A stretch of DNA of 40,433 bases from a virus, in the IMG/VR virus record IMGVR_UViG_3300030361_000020. The stretch is one strand, 5' to 3'. The position numbers and the translations under genes are program-made. Below, piece after piece: positions 8,874 through 40,433 of this stretch. Under the pieces are notes generated by a model that saw nothing but the letters and a program-made list of their open reading frames with translations, had not been told where the DNA came from and ran no database searches. How positions within the stretch are numbered: position 1 is the stretch's first letter; each line of letters opens with the position of its first letter.

Positions 8874-8884
8874 TACTAACCCCG

Positions 8885-9028
8885 TTACTTTTTGTTTTTC
8901 TTTTTATATTCAGAATCTACCGCTTTCTTAAATAACTCTTCGGCGTAGTTCTGCTTTAGCTTTCCGCCTTTTATAGACATAAGCTTTTTGTTTGTATCTT
9001 CAGAAATTGGAAAACGTATTGTTGCCAT
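8885..9028 (-). CDS. Ribbon-helix-helix (Arc/CopG-like) small regulator; 47 aa, not in track
   Basis: ATG 9028 is preceded by GAAGGAGG with a 4-nt spacer. The product is MATIRFPISEDTNKKLMSIKGGKLKQNYAEELFKKAVDSEYKKKNKK, with a beta-strand then helices. It is the first gene of the minus operon, next to the divergent promoters. Confidence 0.55.
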   Translation of the reverse strand: MATIRFPISEDTNKKLMSIKGGKLKQNYAEELFKKAVDSEYKKKNKK

Positions 9029-9055
9029 AAAACCTCCTTCGCTTTCGATGAGTTA

Positions 9056-9084
9056 AATTTAATACCTAATGAGAAATAAATCAA
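9056..9084 (-). promoter_or_regulatory. Candidate sigma70-type promoter for the minus-strand recombination operon
   Basis: On the minus strand, TTGATT-N17-TAAATT. The -10 overlaps a perfect 10-bp palindrome, TTAAATTTAA (9053-9062). Confidence 0.4.
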
Positions 9085-9108
9085 CCATTTTTTTGGATTA
9101 TTTTTTGG

Positions 9109-9137
9109 TTGACATACCCCTATCTTTATACAACAAT
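9109..9137 (+). promoter_or_regulatory. Candidate early rightward promoter
   Basis: TTGACA-N17-AACAAT, preceded by two T-tracts (TTTTTTGGAT and TTTTTTGGTT) acting like an UP element. It lies 23 nt upstream of ATG 9160. Confidence 0.5.
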
Positions 9138-9159
9138 TAATCACAACTAAGGGGTGAAT

Positions 9160-9336
9160 ATGATCAAGCAAAAGCCACAGCCATTAAAACTAAGATACAG
9201 AGACGATAATCACATGAAGGAAATTATCCAAACGCTTTCAAAGTCAAACAAGGTTACAAACATCAAAGTTACAGATGGTTACGTAACTTACGACCAATTA
9301 ACTTTTGTTGAGGATAAAGAATATGAGCAAGAGTGA
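9160..9336 (+). CDS. Hypothetical protein
   Basis: ATG 9160 follows AAGGGG (track start 9154 is GTG). First gene of the rightward block. Confidence 0.6.
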   Translation: MIKQKPQPLKLRYRDDNHMKEIIQTLSKSNKVTNIKVTDGYVTYDQLTFVEDKEYEQE

Positions 9337-13101: not shown

Positions 13102-13460
13102 ACAGCTTAGAAAAGATAGCAAAACGAATTTCTGAAATTAGCGACGAGATATCGCAATTGAAATCACAACGAGAGACTAACCTTGAAAAATGCCACGGCT
13201 CTGAAGATGATGATTTTCAAGAGGACTGGATGAAAAGGATTGAGTCCGGTGAATTTCAGTTAACAAATTGCCTAAAGGCTTGTTATTTGGAGGTTAAGGT
13301 TAGCGGTGGTGTTAATGGGTTTGATTTTGATGAGGCTATTCATATGTACGGATGTAAAAACTGCATTGGGGCGTATGAAGCAAAGAGCAAGATCGGACTA
13401 CTAAAACAAGAGCGCGGGCGGCTAGTTGGAAATATAACAAAAATTGGACGGAAGATTTAA
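13098..13460 (+). CDS. Hypothetical protein
   Basis: ATGA overlap with the previous gene. 120 aa with a coiled N-terminus. Confidence 0.6.
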   Translation: MNSLEKIAKRISEISDEISQLKSQRETNLEKCHGSEDDDFQEDWMKRIESGEFQLTNCLKACYLEVKVSGGVNGFDFDEAIHMYGCKNCIGAYEAKSKIGLLKQERGRLVGNITKIGRKI

Positions 13461-15707: not shown

Positions 15708-17077
15708 TTGAAGAACAAAAGAATCACTATGAGTCTGAGCAGTCCGTACTTGGCGGGCTAATGTTGGTTGGCGATCTTACTGCTGATTCTTGTCAAAGAG
15801 TGTTTAGCATTCTTAAGTCAAATTCATTTTACGCGAGACACCATCAGTTAATATTTAATCAACTAAAAAAAATGCACCACAATGGTGAGCATGTTGATGC
15901 CATTTCTGTTGACGCCGCTCTTAGTAGAGCTGGTATTTCTGATGATGTTGGTGGCTTTGCTTATTTAATGGATTTGTGCAAGGTAGCCAATGTTAGTAAT
16001 TACGTGGCGCATGCAAAGATTGTTAGGGAATCCGCAATATCAAGAGTTATTAATGCAAAGCTTAACGACGCAATAGCTATGGTTAATGAAAATGACGGAA
16101 GAACTGTTTATGAAAAGGTTGGAGACCTTGAGAGTATGATAAGTGCAGTTCTTGATAGGTCAATAAAGAACGATACTTCTGGTCTTGTCCATGCATCTGA
16201 TATTTGTGATAGATGGTCAAAGGAGCTTGAAGATAGATTTGAAAACCCAGAGGCTCAATCTGGATATTCAACAGGAATCAAAGACCTAGACAAAATACTA
16301 AACCCAAAACTAATAAGAAAGGGTTCATTAGTTGTCGTTGGTGCTAGGCCGAAGATGGGTAAAACAGCACTACTTGGTAGTCTGACTAAACAGTTTGCTT
16401 TAGAGCACAAAAAGGCAACCGCAGTATTTTCTCTTGAGATGCCAAGTGACCAAATCATGGAAAGAATGCTTTGTGAAAGGGCTAATGTTAATGGGAATAT
16501 TTTTTACCAAGGTTCAGATAATGACTCTGACTTTGCAAGGGTGTCAGCGGCAATGGGTGAATATGTTAACTCTAAACTTTACATGGATGACACTCCAGCA
16601 ATCACTATTCAGCATATACAGAGAGAATCAAGAAAACTATCAAAGATTGATGATGTTGGGCTTATAGCTGTAGATTACCTAACCCTAATGGAAGCGGAAA
16701 AGGCAGACAGAAATGACTTAGCTTACGGGAAAATAACCAAGGCTCTAAAGAATCTGGCAAAAGAGCTTAATTGTGTTGTTTTGCTTCTAACGCAGCTAAA
16801 CCGCTCTCTTGAATCGAGACCAAACAAAAGGCCGATGCCTAGCGATTCAAGAGATACCGGTCAAATTGAGCAAGATTGTGATTTATGGATCGGTTTGTAT
16901 CGACATGCAGTCTATGATGACAATGTAATTCAAGAAGAAAAAGGACTTACTGAGGTTATAGTAAGACTAAATAGACACGGAGACACTGGAACCGCATATT
17001 TAAATCTGAAGAATGGCTATTTCGTGGAAGGGCATAAGCCAACAATTAGCCAGGGAATAGTTGATGATGAATATTAA
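15704..17077 (+). CDS. dnaB: Replicative DNA helicase DnaB
   Basis: 457 aa. The N-terminal EQSVLGGLM, Walker A GARPKMGKTA, and IAVDYLTLM and LTQLNRSLE motifs match the DnaB family. Confidence 0.9.
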   Translation: MIEEQKNHYESEQSVLGGLMLVGDLTADSCQRVFSILKSNSFYARHHQLIFNQLKKMHHNGEHVDAISVDAALSRAGISDDVGGFAYLMDLCKVANVSNYVAHAKIVRESAISRVINAKLNDAIAMVNENDGRTVYEKVGDLESMISAVLDRSIKNDTSGLVHASDICDRWSKELEDRFENPEAQSGYSTGIKDLDKILNPKLIRKGSLVVVGARPKMGKTALLGSLTKQFALEHKKATAVFSLEMPSDQIMERMLCERANVNGNIFYQGSDNDSDFARVSAAMGEYVNSKLYMDDTPAITIQHIQRESRKLSKIDDVGLIAVDYLTLMEAEKADRNDLAYGKITKALKNLAKELNCVVLLLTQLNRSLESRPNKRPMPSDSRDTGQIEQDCDLWIGLYRHAVYDDNVIQEEKGLTEVIVRLNRHGDTGTAYLNLKNGYFVEGHKPTISQGIVDDEY

Positions 17078-18166: not shown

Positions 18167-18379
18167 ATGGCATTTACAGTTAAAGATGTTCCTATTTGGT
18201 TTTGGTTTGAGCTTTCAAGAAATGGGAATCAATACATTAAAATCTCAAAAGGCAGAACGGGAAATCACTCGCTGTGCGTGAGGAAGGGAGAAAGTTTAGC
18301 TTGGAATATGTCAAACCAAAGTCATGTTAGATTAATTCCAAGCCAAGGGAAACCAAGGTTAAGGTATTGCCATGGCTGA
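18167..18379 (+). CDS. Hypothetical protein
   Basis: 70-aa ORF. The next gene's start overlaps its end. Confidence 0.5.
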   Translation: MAFTVKDVPIWFWFELSRNGNQYIKISKGRTGNHSLCVRKGESLAWNMSNQSHVRLIPSQGKPRLRYCHG

Positions 18380-19978: not shown

Positions 19979-20152
19979 ATGACCCCGTCACAAAGAGCAA
20001 AAGAGCTAGGCTGTCGTAGCTTGGCTCAGGTTATCAAGGTGTCGCAAGTTCCAGAGCGCACTTTGCACGATTGGTTTAAAAACTACCCAAATCGATTTGA
20101 TATGGCTTGCGTTTACACGCGCGAGGTTAAATATGGAAATGGAGTTAAATAA
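19979..20152 (+). CDS. Small HTH DNA-binding protein; 57 aa, not in track
   Basis: MTPSQRAKELGCRSLAQVIKVSQVPERTLHDWFKN fits the HTH pattern. The gene is tightly coupled to its neighbours. Confidence 0.5.
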   Translation: MTPSQRAKELGCRSLAQVIKVSQVPERTLHDWFKNYPNRFDMACVYTREVKYGNGVK

Positions 20153-20153
20153 A

Positions 20154-20645
20154 ATGAAGAAATTCAGCATAGTAAAAATACTAACGTTTGGGTGCATGTT
20201 TTATTCCGCTCTGGCGTTTGTGTTGATGGCGATAGGGATAAGTAAAGCATCGGCCAATGAGGTTAATCAATGGCAGGTAGAAATCATAGATAGCGGTGAA
20301 AGTGTTGGCGTTTATTATGGAGATAGCATCAAGCTGATTAACTCAGGTATGATTATCAATAATGACGACTTGATCTGCATGGTTAACCCTGACATTAAAA
20401 CCAAAAATCTACTTAAGTTTAACGATGAAACTGTGATGTTTGATTTGAGCTGCAACGATAACAACTTAGTGTTCACACCCAGCAGTGCCTATGACTATCT
20501 CATTGCGTCGGATGTAATGAGAGAGGCTTATACGCTAGATGTTCACAGCGCATCAAACGAGCTTCTTGTTAGTGTTCCTATGATTGGTTATCACGCTGCA
20601 TCAAAAGAGGCGATGATGAACAACTACTGGAGTGATCAGCAATGA
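20154..20645 (+). CDS. Secreted protein with a Sec signal peptide
   Basis: The start at ATG 20154 gives MKKFSIVKILTFGCMFYSALAFVLMAIGISKASA/NE, with a basic n-region, a hydrophobic core and an ASA cleavage motif. Track start 20097 adds 19 unlikely residues. Confidence 0.6.
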   Translation: MKKFSIVKILTFGCMFYSALAFVLMAIGISKASANEVNQWQVEIIDSGESVGVYYGDSIKLINSGMIINNDDLICMVNPDIKTKNLLKFNDETVMFDLSCNDNNLVFTPSSAYDYLIASDVMREAYTLDVHSASNELLVSVPMIGYHAASKEAMMNNYWSDQQ

Positions 20646-20890
20646 CTTTTTACGTGCACAGGAAGGCAAACATTAAGCGTGAGCCGCTATACTCAATGTG
20701 TGATATTCAAGAGCGCGTTGGTTATGGCGAGAAAAGCATTAGAAAAGCAATCGCAGCTTTAGGCGTACAATCCTCTGGTGATGGCATTGCAAGCCATGGG
20801 AGGCTAAACATAGCTCTGTCTGACGTAAATAGAATCGAATCGTGGTTGAAAGAGAATATAAGCAAGAGGGCAAATCAAAACTTGCAATAA
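20642..20890 (+). CDS. Small DNA-binding-like protein
   Basis: ATGA overlap with the previous gene. YSMCDIQERVGYGEKSIRKAIAALG looks like an HTH. Confidence 0.55.
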   Translation: MTFYVHRKANIKREPLYSMCDIQERVGYGEKSIRKAIAALGVQSSGDGIASHGRLNIALSDVNRIESWLKENISKRANQNLQ

Positions 20891-20988
20891 AGTAAGTTAT
20901 GGGTTAAGTTTAAATCTCTCCATCGCTGTATTTATGTATCTTTAATTTTACTACCTTGTTGTTAGAAGTTGCTTTTCCTTCAAGTTAA

Positions 20989-21016
20989 AGACCGCCTAAT
21001 TTGGTGGTCTTTTTTT
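20989..21016 (+). terminator. Intrinsic terminator
   Basis: AGACCGCC-taattt-GGTGGTCT (one G-U pair) followed by T6. Confidence 0.75.
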
Positions 21017-21020
21017 ATGT

Positions 21021-21032
21021 GTGGTGTATAAT
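21021..21032 (+). promoter_or_regulatory. Candidate -10 element (perfect TATAAT, no good -35) driving the short non-coding unit
   Basis: TGTGTGGTGTATAAT. It is nearly identical to the segment at 21124-21136. Confidence 0.45.
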
Positions 21033-21038
21033 ATCAAC

Positions 21039-21117
21039 TCGCTCGATGATTCCCATTAACAGTGTGAATGAAATAGACATTGAGCGAACTAGCCCTGGCC
21101 TTGTGTTGGGGCTTTTT
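21039..21117 (+). ncRNA. Candidate small RNA (about 80 nt) bracketed by a promoter and an intrinsic terminator
   Basis: The predicted start is about 7 nt after the TATAAT. A 10-bp stem pairs 21039-21048 with 21078-21087 (29-nt loop). A hairpin, AGCCCT...GGGGCT (21091-21113), follows and its last paired U opens TTTTTATTTT. No SD-led ORF lies within these bounds. Confidence 0.4.
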
Positions 21118-21124
21118 ATTTTCT

Positions 21125-21136
21125 GTGTGGTATAAT
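21125..21136 (+). promoter_or_regulatory. Extended -10 promoter for the lipoprotein gene
   Basis: TGgTATAAT (TG at 21128-21129, TATAAT at 21131-21136). It lies 28 nt upstream of ATG 21165. Confidence 0.55.
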
Positions 21137-21164
21137 TTACCATCAATAAACGGAGAGTAAACCA

Positions 21165-21764
21165 ATGAAGAAATATCTAATCGCATCTTGCGTGTCAGTA
21201 TTGGCGCTATCTGGCTGTAAGAGCACAATTGAAGGTTTGCTAACTTCTGGTGCAGAGAAGGCGCAAGAGCAAGTATTTGCCATGCAGCATCAAGAAGAGT
21301 TCACGCTAAAGGCTACGGCTGAATTCAAAGAGAAAGGCTATGCTGTTTGCTTGACTAACGGCGAGGCTATCGCGTCGATTGATGAGCTTAATGAACACGG
21401 TTCAGCTATCGGAACTAGCGTTAACGGAGTGGTAACTACTCGCGTTAAGAATGGCTATCTAATCGTGCGAACACCACAAAGCGAAACTCACGTTAAATTC
21501 GAGCCTGATGCAAATGCCTATTCCGGCGGTAGCTATGTAGAAGTGCGTGAAACCGATGTGTACCTATGGGGCATTCGACACCCTATCGACTGTATCACTC
21601 AAAAAGTAGAGCGTGACCTTGCTGATATGGAGTATGGCGCTAATAAATTCGACCAACCAGTCAAGGCAAGCAAAATCAAAACTCTCGTTAATGAGCAAAT
21701 GGAAATTTTAGGTCGAGATAAGGTTTACGAGCTTGAGGTTCATTCTGAAAGGAGTAATTTGTGA
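21165..21764 (+). CDS. Lipoprotein
   Basis: MKKYLIASCVSVLALSGC has a lipobox (LSGC) after a signal sequence. ACGGAGAG lies upstream. Confidence 0.75.
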   Translation: MKKYLIASCVSVLALSGCKSTIEGLLTSGAEKAQEQVFAMQHQEEFTLKATAEFKEKGYAVCLTNGEAIASIDELNEHGSAIGTSVNGVVTTRVKNGYLIVRTPQSETHVKFEPDANAYSGGSYVEVRETDVYLWGIRHPIDCITQKVERDLADMEYGANKFDQPVKASKIKTLVNEQMEILGRDKVYELEVHSERSNL

Positions 21765-21955
21765 CTGTTTACTTTATTATTATATTCTGTTTTACGTGCG
21801 TTATTCTTGCGCTAACACCTGTAGCTACCGTTCGCATTAGTAGAGGCTATCTTCATGATAAGCCTCGTTGCAAAGATGCATTGCCCACAAATTCACTGTC
21901 TCGGGATGACTTTGTTGGTGGAATGATTAGCATGCTTAAAAGCGAAATCGGCTAA
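21761..21955 (+). CDS. Small membrane protein
   Basis: GTGA overlap with the previous gene. N-terminal TM segment VYFIIIFCFTCVILALTPVA. Confidence 0.5.
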   Translation: MTVYFIIIFCFTCVILALTPVATVRISRGYLHDKPRCKDALPTNSLSRDDFVGGMISMLKSEIG

Positions 21956-21973: not shown

Positions 21974-21996
21974 AGCGGCCAATTGGTCGCTTTTTT
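21974..21996 (+). terminator. Intrinsic terminator
   Basis: AGCGGCC-aatt-GGTCGCT (one G-U pair) followed by T6. Confidence 0.75.
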
Positions 21997-22002
21997 ATTA
22001 TC

Positions 22003-22011
22003 TGGTAAAAT
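22003..22011 (+). promoter_or_regulatory. Extended -10-like element upstream of terS
   Basis: TGgTAAAAT begins 6 nt after the terminator T-run. The layout matches 21125-21136. Confidence 0.4.
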
Positions 22012-26911: not shown

Positions 26912-26938
26912 AACCCTGCCTGATATAATGGCGGGGTT
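26912..26938 (+). terminator. Intrinsic terminator closing island 1, with an extended -10 box in its loop
   Basis: AACCCTGCC-tgatataat-GGCGGGGTT, then TATTCTATTT. The loop reads TGaTATAAT (26921-26929), 27 nt upstream of ATG 26956. Confidence 0.6.
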
Positions 26939-26955
26939 TATTCTATTTGGTGGTA

Positions 26956-32643: not shown

Positions 32644-32680
32644 TTTTGTAATCGATTAATAAAACGGTATAATTGCTTAT

Positions 32681-32700
32681 GCGGTTGTGCCGCTTTTATT
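32681..32700 (+). terminator. Weak intrinsic terminator after the portal gene
   Basis: GCGG-ttgtg-CCGC, then TTTTATTTTT. TTGTAA-N16-TATAAT (32646-32673) lies just upstream. Confidence 0.45.
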
Positions 32701-37275: not shown

Positions 37276-37334
37276 TTTCGCTATAAGAAAATATAGCTGT
37301 ATAATAGCAGTGCCAACCTATAGGAGATTTATTT

Positions 37335-38737: not shown

Positions 38738-38751
38738 TAGTGGGCTTTTTT
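38726..38751 (+). terminator. Intrinsic terminator between the chaperone and tape-measure genes
   Basis: AAAGCCC-ttgatagt-GGGCTTT with T7. The hairpin overlaps the GT stop codon. Confidence 0.65.
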
Positions 38752-38795
38752 TGTATTTTTAATTTAAAATAAAGCCATGTTTAAAGGGGTAGATT

Positions 38796-40433
38796 ATGGC
38801 AGACATAGCTAAACTAGGCTTTAAGGTTGACACTTCAGGGTTATCAAAAGGCACTAAAGAGCTAGATAAGTTCAATAAGTCAGGCAATCAAGCTGAATCA
38901 TCAACTGGCAAGTTGAGCATGGCGATCGGCGGTATGTCAAAAGCCGCTGGCGTTGCTGGAGCTGCAATAGCTGCCACTGCTGGCGTGTTATCTGCGTATG
39001 TTTATCAGCTTGGTCGGTCAAGACGAGAGCTTGAGGCTAACGCTAGGCTAGCTGGTGATACAGTTGAAAACTTTCAGTCTCAGGAGTTCGCATATAGGCA
39101 GTTTGGGCTTACCGTTGATAACGTAACTGACATATTCAAAGATGCGCGTGAAAGAATTGGCGAATTTGTAAAGGGAATGTCGGGCGGTCTTGATGATTTC
39201 GGCACTGTGATGGGGTGGTCAAAGGAGCGAACCAAGCAATTTGCAATGGAGCTTACAGGACTTTCAGGTCAAGATGCGTTGCAGGTTATTGTTAGTCAAA
39301 TGGAAATGGCAGGAGCATCCGCTAACGAGATGAGTTGGGCGCTTGAGGGTTTAGGCTCAGAAGCAACCAGAATGATTCCAGCTCTAGAGAATAATGGTAA
39401 TGCAATTAGAAGCCTAACGGATGAGTATTCATCTTTTAATGACGTTTTTAAGCTTGATGAAGCAGAGATAGATAATTACGCAAGGCTAACTAAGAACTTT
39501 GACCTATTCTTAGCTACCGCTGAGAACGGAATGACAAAAGTTATAGCGCCACTCGCTGGACATATGGCTGATTTAGCTATAGCAACAACGCACTTCCTAA
39601 GTTCTCTACAAGAAGGAACCGAGGCAAACGTCGCCTCTGAGCTGGTTGATATTAACGAGCAAATATCAACACTTAATAAGGCAATAGAAGATAACGCAAC
39701 CGCATCAGGGAGAGCAAAAAACGCTTTACTTGGCTTTACTGATGGAACAAGCACAGATAACAACTTCATGAGGGAGCAGATTGAGCTTTTAAAGCAAAGG
39801 CGAGCAATTTTGATGGAGCAGCTCTCGCAAATGAGGACTGGAACTTCTGGGCTAATTGATACGTCAGCTCCATTCGAAATGGAAATCACTTCATCAAATA
39901 ATTTACGAAATGTTATTGTATCAAACAGCGAGGCAATGATAGAGGCTCAAAAGGCATGGGATAAAATGCTTAAAGAAGGCACTTTAGGCATGACAGAGTA
40001 CGTCGACACCTCTACAGAGATCGCAAAGAAAGCTCAAAAGGCATGGGATGAAATGAGAGAGTCTGGAACTCTTGGAGTTACAAGTTTCGTTGATACTTCA
40101 GGAATGATGGAAGATCAATTCATAGAGGCATCCAACGGAGCCATATCTCTTCTTTCATCTATACAAAGGCTTTCTGATGAAGGATCTAGCGCATACAAAG
40201 ACCTAGAACGTGCGATAATGGCGGTCAACATCGCACAGTCTGCCGTTAGTGGAAATATCGCAGGTGCGGTTGCGTCAAGCATTGGCTTGCTAATGTCTCT
40301 TGATAACGATCTTGGTGGTGATATATCGGCAGAGGTACAAGCAAGTCAAAATCTTGATGCTTGGGGTGAAAAGGCTGATTCAATATCTAAGTCTGTTGAT
40401 ATTACAGCCAGCGCAACAGAGAAGCTTGTTGGC
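38796..40433 (+). CDS. Tape measure protein, 5' part (open to the window end, continues at base 1)
   Basis: ATG 38796 follows AAAGGGG. I translated the first ~140 codons and 39945-40100, and both are stop-free. The track lists no + ORF here, and frame phasing fits an open frame to 40433 (546 codons); the rest was not read codon by codon. The N-terminus is MADIAKLGFKVDTSGLSKGTKELDKF.. with a hydrophobic AAGVAGAAIAATAGVL segment, and DIFKDARERIGEFVKG is typical of tape-measure proteins. Absent from the track because it has no stop in the window. Confidence 0.85.
   Translation, partial: MADIAKLGFKVDTSGLSKGTKELDKFNKSGNQAESSTGKLSMAIGGMSKAAGVAGAAIAATAGVLSAYVYQLGRSRRELEANARLAGDTVENFQSQEFAYRQFGLTVDNVTDIFKDARERIGEFVKGMSGGLDDFGTVMGWSKERTKQFAMELTGLSGQDALQVIVSQMEMAGASANEMSWALEGLGSEATRMIPALENNGNAIRSLTDEYSSFNDVFKLDEAEIDNYARLTKNFDLFLATAENGMTKVIAPLAGHMADLAIATTHFLSSLQEGTEANVASELVDINEQISTLNKAIEDNATASGRAKNALLGFTDGTSTDNNFMREQIELLKQRRAILMEQLSQMRTGTSGLIDTSAPFEMEITSSNNLRNVIVSNSEAMIEAQKAWDKMLKEGTLGMTEYVDTSTEIAKKAQKAWDEMRESGTLGVTSFVDTSGMMEDQFIEASNGAISLLSSIQRLSDEGSSAYKDLERAIMAVNIAQSAVSGNIAGAVASSIGLLMSLDNDLGGDISAEVQASQNLDAWGEKADSISKSVDITASATEKLVG
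39945..40100 (+). repeat. Tandem 87-bp (29-aa) duplication inside the tape-measure gene
   Basis: AQKAWDKMLKEGTLGMTEYVDTS and AQKAWDEMRESGTLGVTSFVDTS. A 17-nt exact match, GCTCAAAAGGCATGGGA, occurs at 39945 and 40032. Confidence 0.8.
40307..40433. repeat. Right copy of the 127-bp exact terminal overlap
   Basis: Identical to 1..127 by direct comparison. Confidence 0.95.

Follow-up and report, generated by a model that had tools for sequence, protein, structure and literature searches.

We sought to determine whether a gap between two small genes of an uncultured marine phage encodes a small RNA (sRNA). The phage is known to us as IMG/VR virus record IMGVR_UViG_3300030361_000020, a stretch of 40,433 nucleotides that was analyzed over its full length and is hereafter called the window. 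The gap (20890-21165) separates a gene for an 82-aa protein from a lipoprotein gene, and an initial annotation had proposed that it holds a promoter-to-terminator unit for a phage sRNA of about 80 nt. We found that the layout of the unit (a promoter-like -10 element, a stem-loop, a terminator, no suitable open reading frame (ORF), and G-U pairs on the plus strand) does fit an sRNA of 80-85 nt, while the analysis gave it no positive functional support and its promoter is the weakest copy of a repeated element. We therefore describe the unit, tentatively and with somewhat less than even confidence, as a lineage-specific non-coding transcription unit and a candidate trans-acting phage sRNA.

All five parts that had been described for the gap are present in the same order, and each lies at most 2 nt from where it had been placed. 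The gap opens with an intrinsic terminator (T1, 20987..21016, plus strand), which consists of a 10-pair stem (20987-21012) with a 6-nt loop and a T7 tail (ΔG = -15.7 kcal/mol; z = -6.7). No T-run follows this hairpin on the minus strand, and T1 is predicted to end the transcription unit of the upstream 82-aa gene. A perfect -10 hexamer, TATAAT, comes next (P1, 21027..21032, plus strand), followed by a stem-loop (SL1, 21039..21087, plus strand) and by a second intrinsic terminator (T2, 21091..21123, plus strand) with a 9-pair stem (21091-21113) running into UUUUUAUUUU. The U-tract directly after the T2 stem, TTTTTATTTT, is interrupted, and T2 (ΔG = -12.0; z = -2.6) is the weakest of the three terminators described here. 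The last part is P2, an extended -10 promoter (TGGTATAAT, TGgTATAAT; 21128..21136, plus strand). Placing the start 5-9 nt past the P1 -10 and the end within the T2 U-tract gives a predicted non-coding transcript of ~80-85 nt at 21037..21121 (plus strand). The gap had also been called the largest intergenic one, which is wrong by the ORF list, as the gaps at 8874-9304 and 38738-39475 are longer.

The structural case is carried by SL1. Its basal stem pairs 21039-21048 with 21078-21087 over 10 bp, one of them a G-U (21045/21081), and encloses a 29-nt loop that folds on into an 8-nt asymmetric internal loop (GAAAUAGA), a weak, irregular upper stem (4+4 bp) above it and a small apical loop. SL1 folds with a ΔG of -15.9 kcal/mol, compared with -6.3 to -6.5 for dinucleotide shuffles (z = -4.15 to -4.54), and only 0-1 of 200 shuffles folded as well. 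By our own estimate, the chance of a 10-bp stem with at most one G-U in the predefined 58-nt interval is ~0.002. The whole RNA (21039-21122; 84 nt) reached a ΔG of -27.7 (z = -3.4), and the minus strand of a 90-nt stretch over SL1 and T2 folded worse (ΔG = -21.2; z = -2.5). G-U pairs occur once in SL1, once in T1 and three times in T2; since these become C-A mismatches on the opposite strand, the structures belong to a plus-strand RNA. The claim that no ORF led by a Shine-Dalgarno (SD) sequence lies between P1 and T2 was borne out by both the ORF list and the sequence.

Loci encoding relatives of TerS were collected from IMG/VR, metagenomes and genomes and then scanned for the same terminator/-10 arrangement. 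Directly upstream of terS, related marine siphoviruses carry a module made of a terminator hairpin, a T-run, 2-22 nt and TGnTAnAAT (found in BS5, HS2, Shewanella 3/49 and loci L012, L013, L037, L039-41, L048, L049 and L059/60), which in BS5 and HS2 sits one small ORF before terS. Its coordinates in relatives are 3218-3286 in L009, 3386-3455 in L011, 3286-3352 in L012, 3918-3984 in L013 and 1136-1202 in L037. In an alignment of 13 modules the hairpin sequences vary freely, and the T-run, the TG and TAnAAT are kept. The phage studied here has this module three times in tandem (20987-21032, 21091-21136 and 21974-22011, plus strand), T2 being the terminator part of the second copy. The third copy (T3/P3, 21974..22011, plus strand) lies directly upstream of terS (22035/22041-22484) and comprises a 7-bp hairpin (T3, 21974-21991), a T-run and TGgTAAAAT (P3, TGGTAAAAT, 22003-22011). 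What had been read as a free-standing unit is thus sound in its parts, but the tandem triplication of a conserved junction module had gone unnoticed: the candidate RNA corresponds to the 58 nt that separate copy 1 from copy 2.

The modules also bear on how the gap is used and how it arose. Over 41 nt, P2 and the module before terS in L013 are 78% identical, TTTACC past the -10 included, and this likeness supports the earlier assignment of P2 as the promoter of the lipoprotein gene; the 5′ untranslated region that would start there is unstructured and offers the lipoprotein gene a good SD. P3 looks like the same L013 type of module with a deletion of ~7 nt, and T3/P3 as a whole looks like the counterpart of the terS-upstream modules of L012, L013, L037, BS5, HS2 and Shewanella phage 3/49. 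Since P2 and P3 both look like a promoter module that relatives keep before terS, the architecture is one in functional use. Modules 1 and 2 share TGTGTGG, which the modules of relatives lack, and the hairpins of T1 and T2 are wholly different in sequence. Even against the closest relatives (TerS 76-88% identical), synteny starts only at the module and terS, with nothing upstream in common. Because it starts exactly there, the site can be regarded as a mosaic joint for cassette swapping, and in these relatives the module and the N-terminal TerS domain appear to move together as a single mosaic unit.

None of the TerS-relative loci, whether from IMG/VR, metagenomes or genomes, holds a copy of the candidate RNA unit. 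The pre-terS slot of L012 (2107-2447) and L013 (2333-2671) does contain a promoter, a 135-nt highly structured leader ending in U7, tRNA-Ser(GCU), tRNA-Arg(UCU) and two small ORFs, and we counted it in favor of an RNA that the same slot holds RNA genes behind a promoter and a structured leader in these two loci. The promoter of that slot is TTGCAA-17-TATAAT with its spacer inside a hairpin, and the slot lies just after the gene for an 81-aa helix-turn-helix (HTH) protein. A stretch between two terminators in BS5 and HS2 was considered as an analogous mini-unit and rejected, as an SD-led ORF runs through it.

Production of the RNA would depend on P1, which we regard from its sequence as a plausible working promoter, yet the weakest link of the sRNA case. 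In its favor, six of the eight plus-strand copies of TATAAT in the window are intergenic, compared with ~14% intergenic sequence, and the remaining five intergenic copies all lie just upstream of genes. With the hexamer so concentrated between genes, the perfect copy at P1 is unlikely to be idle. Counted over the whole window, TATAAT occurs 8 times on the plus and 6 times on the minus strand, below a Markov expectation of 11-15 per strand, and a second intergenic site (~37298) also has a TG directly against TATAAT.

A number of observations weigh against an sRNA, beginning with P1 itself. TG stands at -15/-14 in 12 of the 13 aligned modules, and the only exception is P1 (GGTG-TATAAT), whose TG is at -14/-13 instead, so that no extended -10 results. 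The promoter segments had been called near-identical, and both do share TGTGTGGT(GT)ATAAT, with no further site in the window within 2 mismatches of the common segment; they are not equivalent, however, as P1 carries an additional GT (2 nt) within the TG repeat and its TG is one base off. Nor was a -35 found for P1, the best candidates matching 3/6 at 16-20 bp and a two-hexamer scan missing P1 altogether. Lacking both a -35 and the extended -10 TG, P1 would be a -10-only promoter, and an extended -10 promoter without a -35 should lose much of its activity with its TG. The RNA body, for its part, found no relatives. Rfam 15 (E <= 10) gave no family at its gathering threshold: the best matches over the unit were ncr1175 (21.3 bits vs a threshold of 60) and Trp_leader (15.9 vs 41), and the strongest one nearby, Phe_leader (27.8 vs 55), ends at T1. 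Searching 50,697 phage genomes by blastn with the 1.2-kb region and with the 93-nt unit returned only terminator-sized chance matches. A scan of IMG/VR with the two stem arms and a variable gap gave a single chance match in an unrelated locus (L001), and neither IMG/VR scans with 18- and 19-mers of the SL1 loop region nor an exact 26-mer search of GTDB (185,579 species genomes) gave any. The same phage is present in at least 24 assemblies by exact-protein look-ups, and the aligned copies are identical to the window over the intergenic region and the flanking kilobases; with zero variation among them, they lend an RNA no support from conservation or covariation.

The form of the RNA and its predicted targets count on the same side. 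SL1 and T2 are joined by ACU only, with no A/U-rich linker of the Hfq type, and the 5′ end of the RNA is locked in the SL1 stem, unlike that of typical Hfq-dependent sRNAs. Of the features that mark Hfq-dependent sRNAs, T2 supplies a Rho-independent terminator with a long U-tail; an A/U-rich single-stranded site beside the terminator and an accessible seed are absent, given the ACU linker and the paired 5′ end. Target prediction, which had been suggested as a check, came out no better than shuffles on the phage side, where RNAduplex was run against 65 translation-initiation regions. On the other side of the balance is a perfect complementarity of 13 nt between SL1 21049-21061 (AUUCCCAUUAACA) and 16486-16498 (plus strand) inside the coding sequence (CDS) of a DnaB-like helicase, which we counted in favor of an sRNA. 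By shuffling, a 13-nt match has P ~0.02 among plus-strand RNAs and 0.05 when both strands are counted, and the pairing site is best taken as a lead only, marginally above chance. Three plus-strand coding sites (16486-16498, 18221-18231 and 13310-13319) can pair over 13, 11 and 10 nt with the same part of SL1 (21047-21061). Each of them encodes an Asn-Gly-containing peptide, and shared codon content may explain their complementarity.

If the unit does make an sRNA, it would operate as a mini transcription unit inside the three-module tandem array, where the accessory genes give way to terS. Transcription by the host's sigma-70 RNA polymerase would begin around 21037-21041, with P1 used as a -10-only promoter, run through SL1 and end at T2, releasing a discrete RNA of ~80-85 nt. 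This RNA would most likely be trans-acting, with the exposed upper portion of SL1 as its pairing region (the apical AUUCCCAUUAACA and/or the internal loop GAAAUAGA), its target being a host or a phage mRNA. We consider it improbable that the sRNA gene was born recently and de novo from tandem module duplication at the mosaic joint and that the exposed top of its hairpin pairs with the mRNA of the helicase (16486-16498) or an envelope mRNA of the host.

The main rival to the sRNA is a recombination scar or empty cassette, in which the module was duplicated as cassettes came or went at the terS boundary, leaving P1 as a crippled copy of P2, T1 and T2 as an insulating double terminator and the 58-nt filling without function. 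Though on balance unlikely, this explanation deserves serious weight. It accounts for the three tandem modules, for a TGTGTGG that modules 1 and 2 share and relatives lack, for the resemblance of P2 to the L013 terS promoter and of P3 to the same module minus ~7 nt, and for a mosaic joint exactly where synteny sets in; everything in the slot is lineage-specific, and P1 differs from P2 by a slippage-type insertion of 2 nt that destroys the extended -10. What a scar leaves unexplained is the 10-bp stem of SL1 (z = -4.2 to -4.5; chance ~0.002) and an intact TATAAT, a hexamer largely confined to intergenic sites upstream of genes. A recent duplication should also leave similar hairpins, and those of T1 and T2 are wholly unlike. 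It is a good deal less probable that the unit is a cis-acting leader, with P1 and P2 as tandem promoters of the lipoprotein cassette, SL1 and T2 forming an attenuator or a stabilizing element on P1 transcripts, and the amount of read-through setting lipoprotein expression under some condition. T2 does lie on the same strand as the lipoprotein gene, 52 nt before its start codon, and as the weakest terminator (with its three G-U pairs and interrupted U-tract) it makes partial read-through plausible; when the full intergenic region is folded, moreover, the SD region of the lipoprotein mRNA can pair with the U-tract and P2 region. Yet we saw no alternative antiterminator that would pair with the 5′ arm of T2, the minimum-free-energy structure dominates, no riboswitch or leader family comes near its Rfam threshold, and an additional promoter further upstream is unneeded, as the leader made from P2 alone is unstructured and has a good SD.

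We give little credence to a checkpoint of the lambdoid PR′-tR′ kind, in which transcription from a constitutive P1 would stop at T2, yielding an RNA like 6S or StxS, until a phage antiterminator opened T2 and T3 into terS and the late genes. The position would suit such a switch, at the end of a nin-like region (NinB, Lar) and immediately upstream of terS and terL, with a small, putatively DNA-binding protein (by its structural model) encoded just upstream. The hallmark of these systems is a promoter with a terminator immediately behind it (PMC7547250; bioRxiv 10.1101/2024.10.31.621285). Here T2 ends ~80 nt past P1, and in lambda too an ORF starts in the short RNA and spans the terminator (orf-64; bioRxiv 10.1101/2024.10.31.621285). 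No Q-, N- or other antiterminator family was found among the neighboring proteins, however, and the upstream 82-aa, 170-aa and 57-aa proteins, which we checked for a Q-family member, have no antiterminator match in Pfam or PHROG. P1 looks weak where a strong promoter would be expected, the downstream genes have their own extended -10 promoters (P2 and P3), conserved before terS in relatives without an intervening terminator, and the genome is built of many terminator-delimited units with a promoter each. An element acting as DNA, with the 10-bp inverted repeat serving as a recombination site or as a binding site for a protein such as the MerR-like 82-aa product, seems very improbable. The repeat does lie at ~+1 to +49 of P1, beside the gene of an orphan protein with a weak MerR/excisionase-like fold. 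TTGGTG stands 20 bp upstream of the P1 -10 and TTGGGG 19 bp upstream of the P2 -10, a spacing that resembles the overlong -35/-10 spacers typical of MerR-type promoters. But half-sites whose centers lie 39 bp apart are atypical, at one arm position DNA has a G-T mismatch where RNA has a valid G-U, neither arm recurs elsewhere in the window, and the MerR-like fold comes from a low-confidence single-sequence model. A small protein gene, finally, has next to nothing to recommend it. The sole ATG ORF, of 29 aa (21046-21135; MIPINSVNEIDIERTSPGLVLGLFIFCVV), begins 7-10 nt from the inferred transcription start and has a hydrophobic C-terminus, but no SD precedes it and its ATG is paired inside the SL1 stem. 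The frame crosses T2 and reaches its stop codon inside the P2 -10 box, so that a terminated transcript would have no stop codon, and its 12-residue hydrophobic tail is too short for a membrane span and merely translates the terminator and U-tract.

What the locus means differs with these readings. With an sRNA here, an uncultured marine phage would join a short list made up mostly of coliphages and Vibrio phages, and the unit would be a clean example of sRNA gene origin, in which duplicated terminator/promoter junctions automatically yield a short transcription unit. Were the RNA also born de novo, it could be a lineage-private post-transcriptional switch, for example one that dampens replication at the onset of packaging. 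Should the unit be no more than a scar, there is nothing unusual about the finding. The conserved terS-upstream module is a more solid by-product, useful for annotating promoters and cassette boundaries in this phage group, and its tandem triplication marks a joint of accessory cassette exchange.

Judged by sequence and structure, the unit matches no known system, and if real it would be an orphan phage sRNA. When 68 sources (386 kb of related loci) were scanned with a covariance model built from this one sequence, the only matches were terminators in BS5 and HS2. The oop RNA of lambda (77 nt) and sar of P22 are cis-antisense RNAs that overlap a gene on the opposite strand; the candidate resembles them in size and in its promoter-to-terminator layout with a stem-loop, whereas it is wholly intergenic, with only spurious minus-strand ORFs opposite and both flanking genes on the plus strand. 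Morons are accessory cassettes with their own promoter and terminator in phage late regions. The unit running from P2 through the lipoprotein and 64-aa genes to T3 has exactly the moron layout, and the candidate occupies the same type of slot between the same junction modules, but its cassette has no protein-coding cargo. Stand-alone phage sRNAs are known in lambda LPR1/PreS, a trans-acting RNA of ~88 nt that ends at tL2a (bioRxiv 10.1101/2024.10.31.621285), and in the prophage Pas sRNAs of E. coli, which are phage-encoded and have their own terminator (bioRxiv 10.64898/2026.05.13.724894). Like these, the candidate (known here from its sequence) is a short, ORF-less unit of similar size in an accessory region, ending in a GC-rich hairpin and U-tail; unlike them, it has its 5′ end in a stem and no A/U-rich linker before the terminator, and it shares no homology with them in sequence or structure. 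The 6S RNA of lambda (194 nt) and StxS of Stx phages are short transcripts of the lambdoid PR′-tR′ region (PMC7547250). With these the candidate shares a terminator almost directly after the promoter, upstream of accessory and late genes, and an ORF that spans the terminator as lambda orf-64 does, and a by-product RNA of the unit could moonlight as an sRNA, as in PR′-tR′ systems. It differs in having no detected gene for a Q-type antiterminator, conserved downstream promoters and a weak-looking P1. A put-type antiterminator RNA as in HK022 was rejected, as the candidate has a single 5′ stem-loop and neither a k-mer search nor the covariance model found a second copy of SL1 in the window. We also rejected a tRNA or tmRNA identity, ARAGORN finding no cloverleaf in the unit and no tRNA or tmRNA in the window.

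The phage is siphovirus-like, with predicted hosts among marine Gammaproteobacteria, and the window is a rotated version of a JGI metagenome contig of 40,433 nt. Its TerL is ~60% identical to those of Pseudoalteromonas phages BS5 and HS2, Shewanella phage 3/49 and Vibrio phage P23. The plus-strand gene order is anti-repressor, DnaD-like loader, DnaB-like helicase, Lar, NinB, DUF5675, small accessory genes, terS and terL, and no integrase, CI-type repressor or Q/N-type antiterminator was detected among the proteins of the window. Strong intrinsic terminators on the plus strand each have a promoter-like site straight after them (14572->14599 and 19241->19269, then T1, T2 and T3), and from these repeated pairs the genome looks like a string of independent sigma-70-type units, an organization that we counted in favor of an sRNA.

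The upstream gene (20642..20890, plus strand) is the last of the preceding transcription unit, and its 82-aa product is an orphan, matching itself alone in 5.8 billion proteins and, by full HMMER, in 1.8 billion representatives. A single-sequence AlphaFold2 (AF2) model of this protein (predicted local distance difference test score (pLDDT) 69) gave weak Foldseek matches to RacA, GlnR, TnrA, BldC and TorI (E >= 0.04), and on this model the protein is possibly a small MerR-type winged-HTH DNA-binding protein. The accessory cassette downstream (21165..21955, plus strand) encodes a 199-aa lipoprotein (21165-21764; lipobox LSGC) and an overlapping 64-aa membrane protein. The lipoprotein likewise matches only itself in 5.8 billion proteins, and neither it nor the 82-aa protein has a match in Pfam or PHROG; the 64-aa protein and a 170-aa protein could be placed in no family of Pfam or PHROG. 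The accessory genes around the unit, including those at 20133-20645 and 21761-21955, are all envelope-targeted, the 170-aa protein having a signal peptide and the 64-aa protein an N-terminal membrane helix.

Several smaller observations were made along the way. The minus strand at ~8897-9040 holds a small ORF (~47 aa, MATIRFPISEDT...) with a ribbon-helix-helix-like N-terminus, read by eye, next to a divergent promoter region (TTGACA-17-AACAAT at 9109-9137), and this ORF may encode an Arc/Mnt-type regulator. The annotated 181-aa CDS of BS5 (L009 1704-2249; 35893-36438 of the BS5 record), in a region that is 97% identical in HS2, crosses a strong terminator-like hairpin with a T-run (L009 1819-1847); perhaps its start has been misannotated, or perhaps the hairpin serves as an internal attenuator. 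Lastly, -10 hexamers lie inside or abut terminator-like hairpins at 26912-26940, 32665-32692 and 37280-37305 of the window and at 2691-2714 of L009, one example being AACCCTGCC-TGATATAAT-GGCGGGGTT with an extended -10 in the hairpin loop, which suggests very compact overlaps of terminator and promoter.

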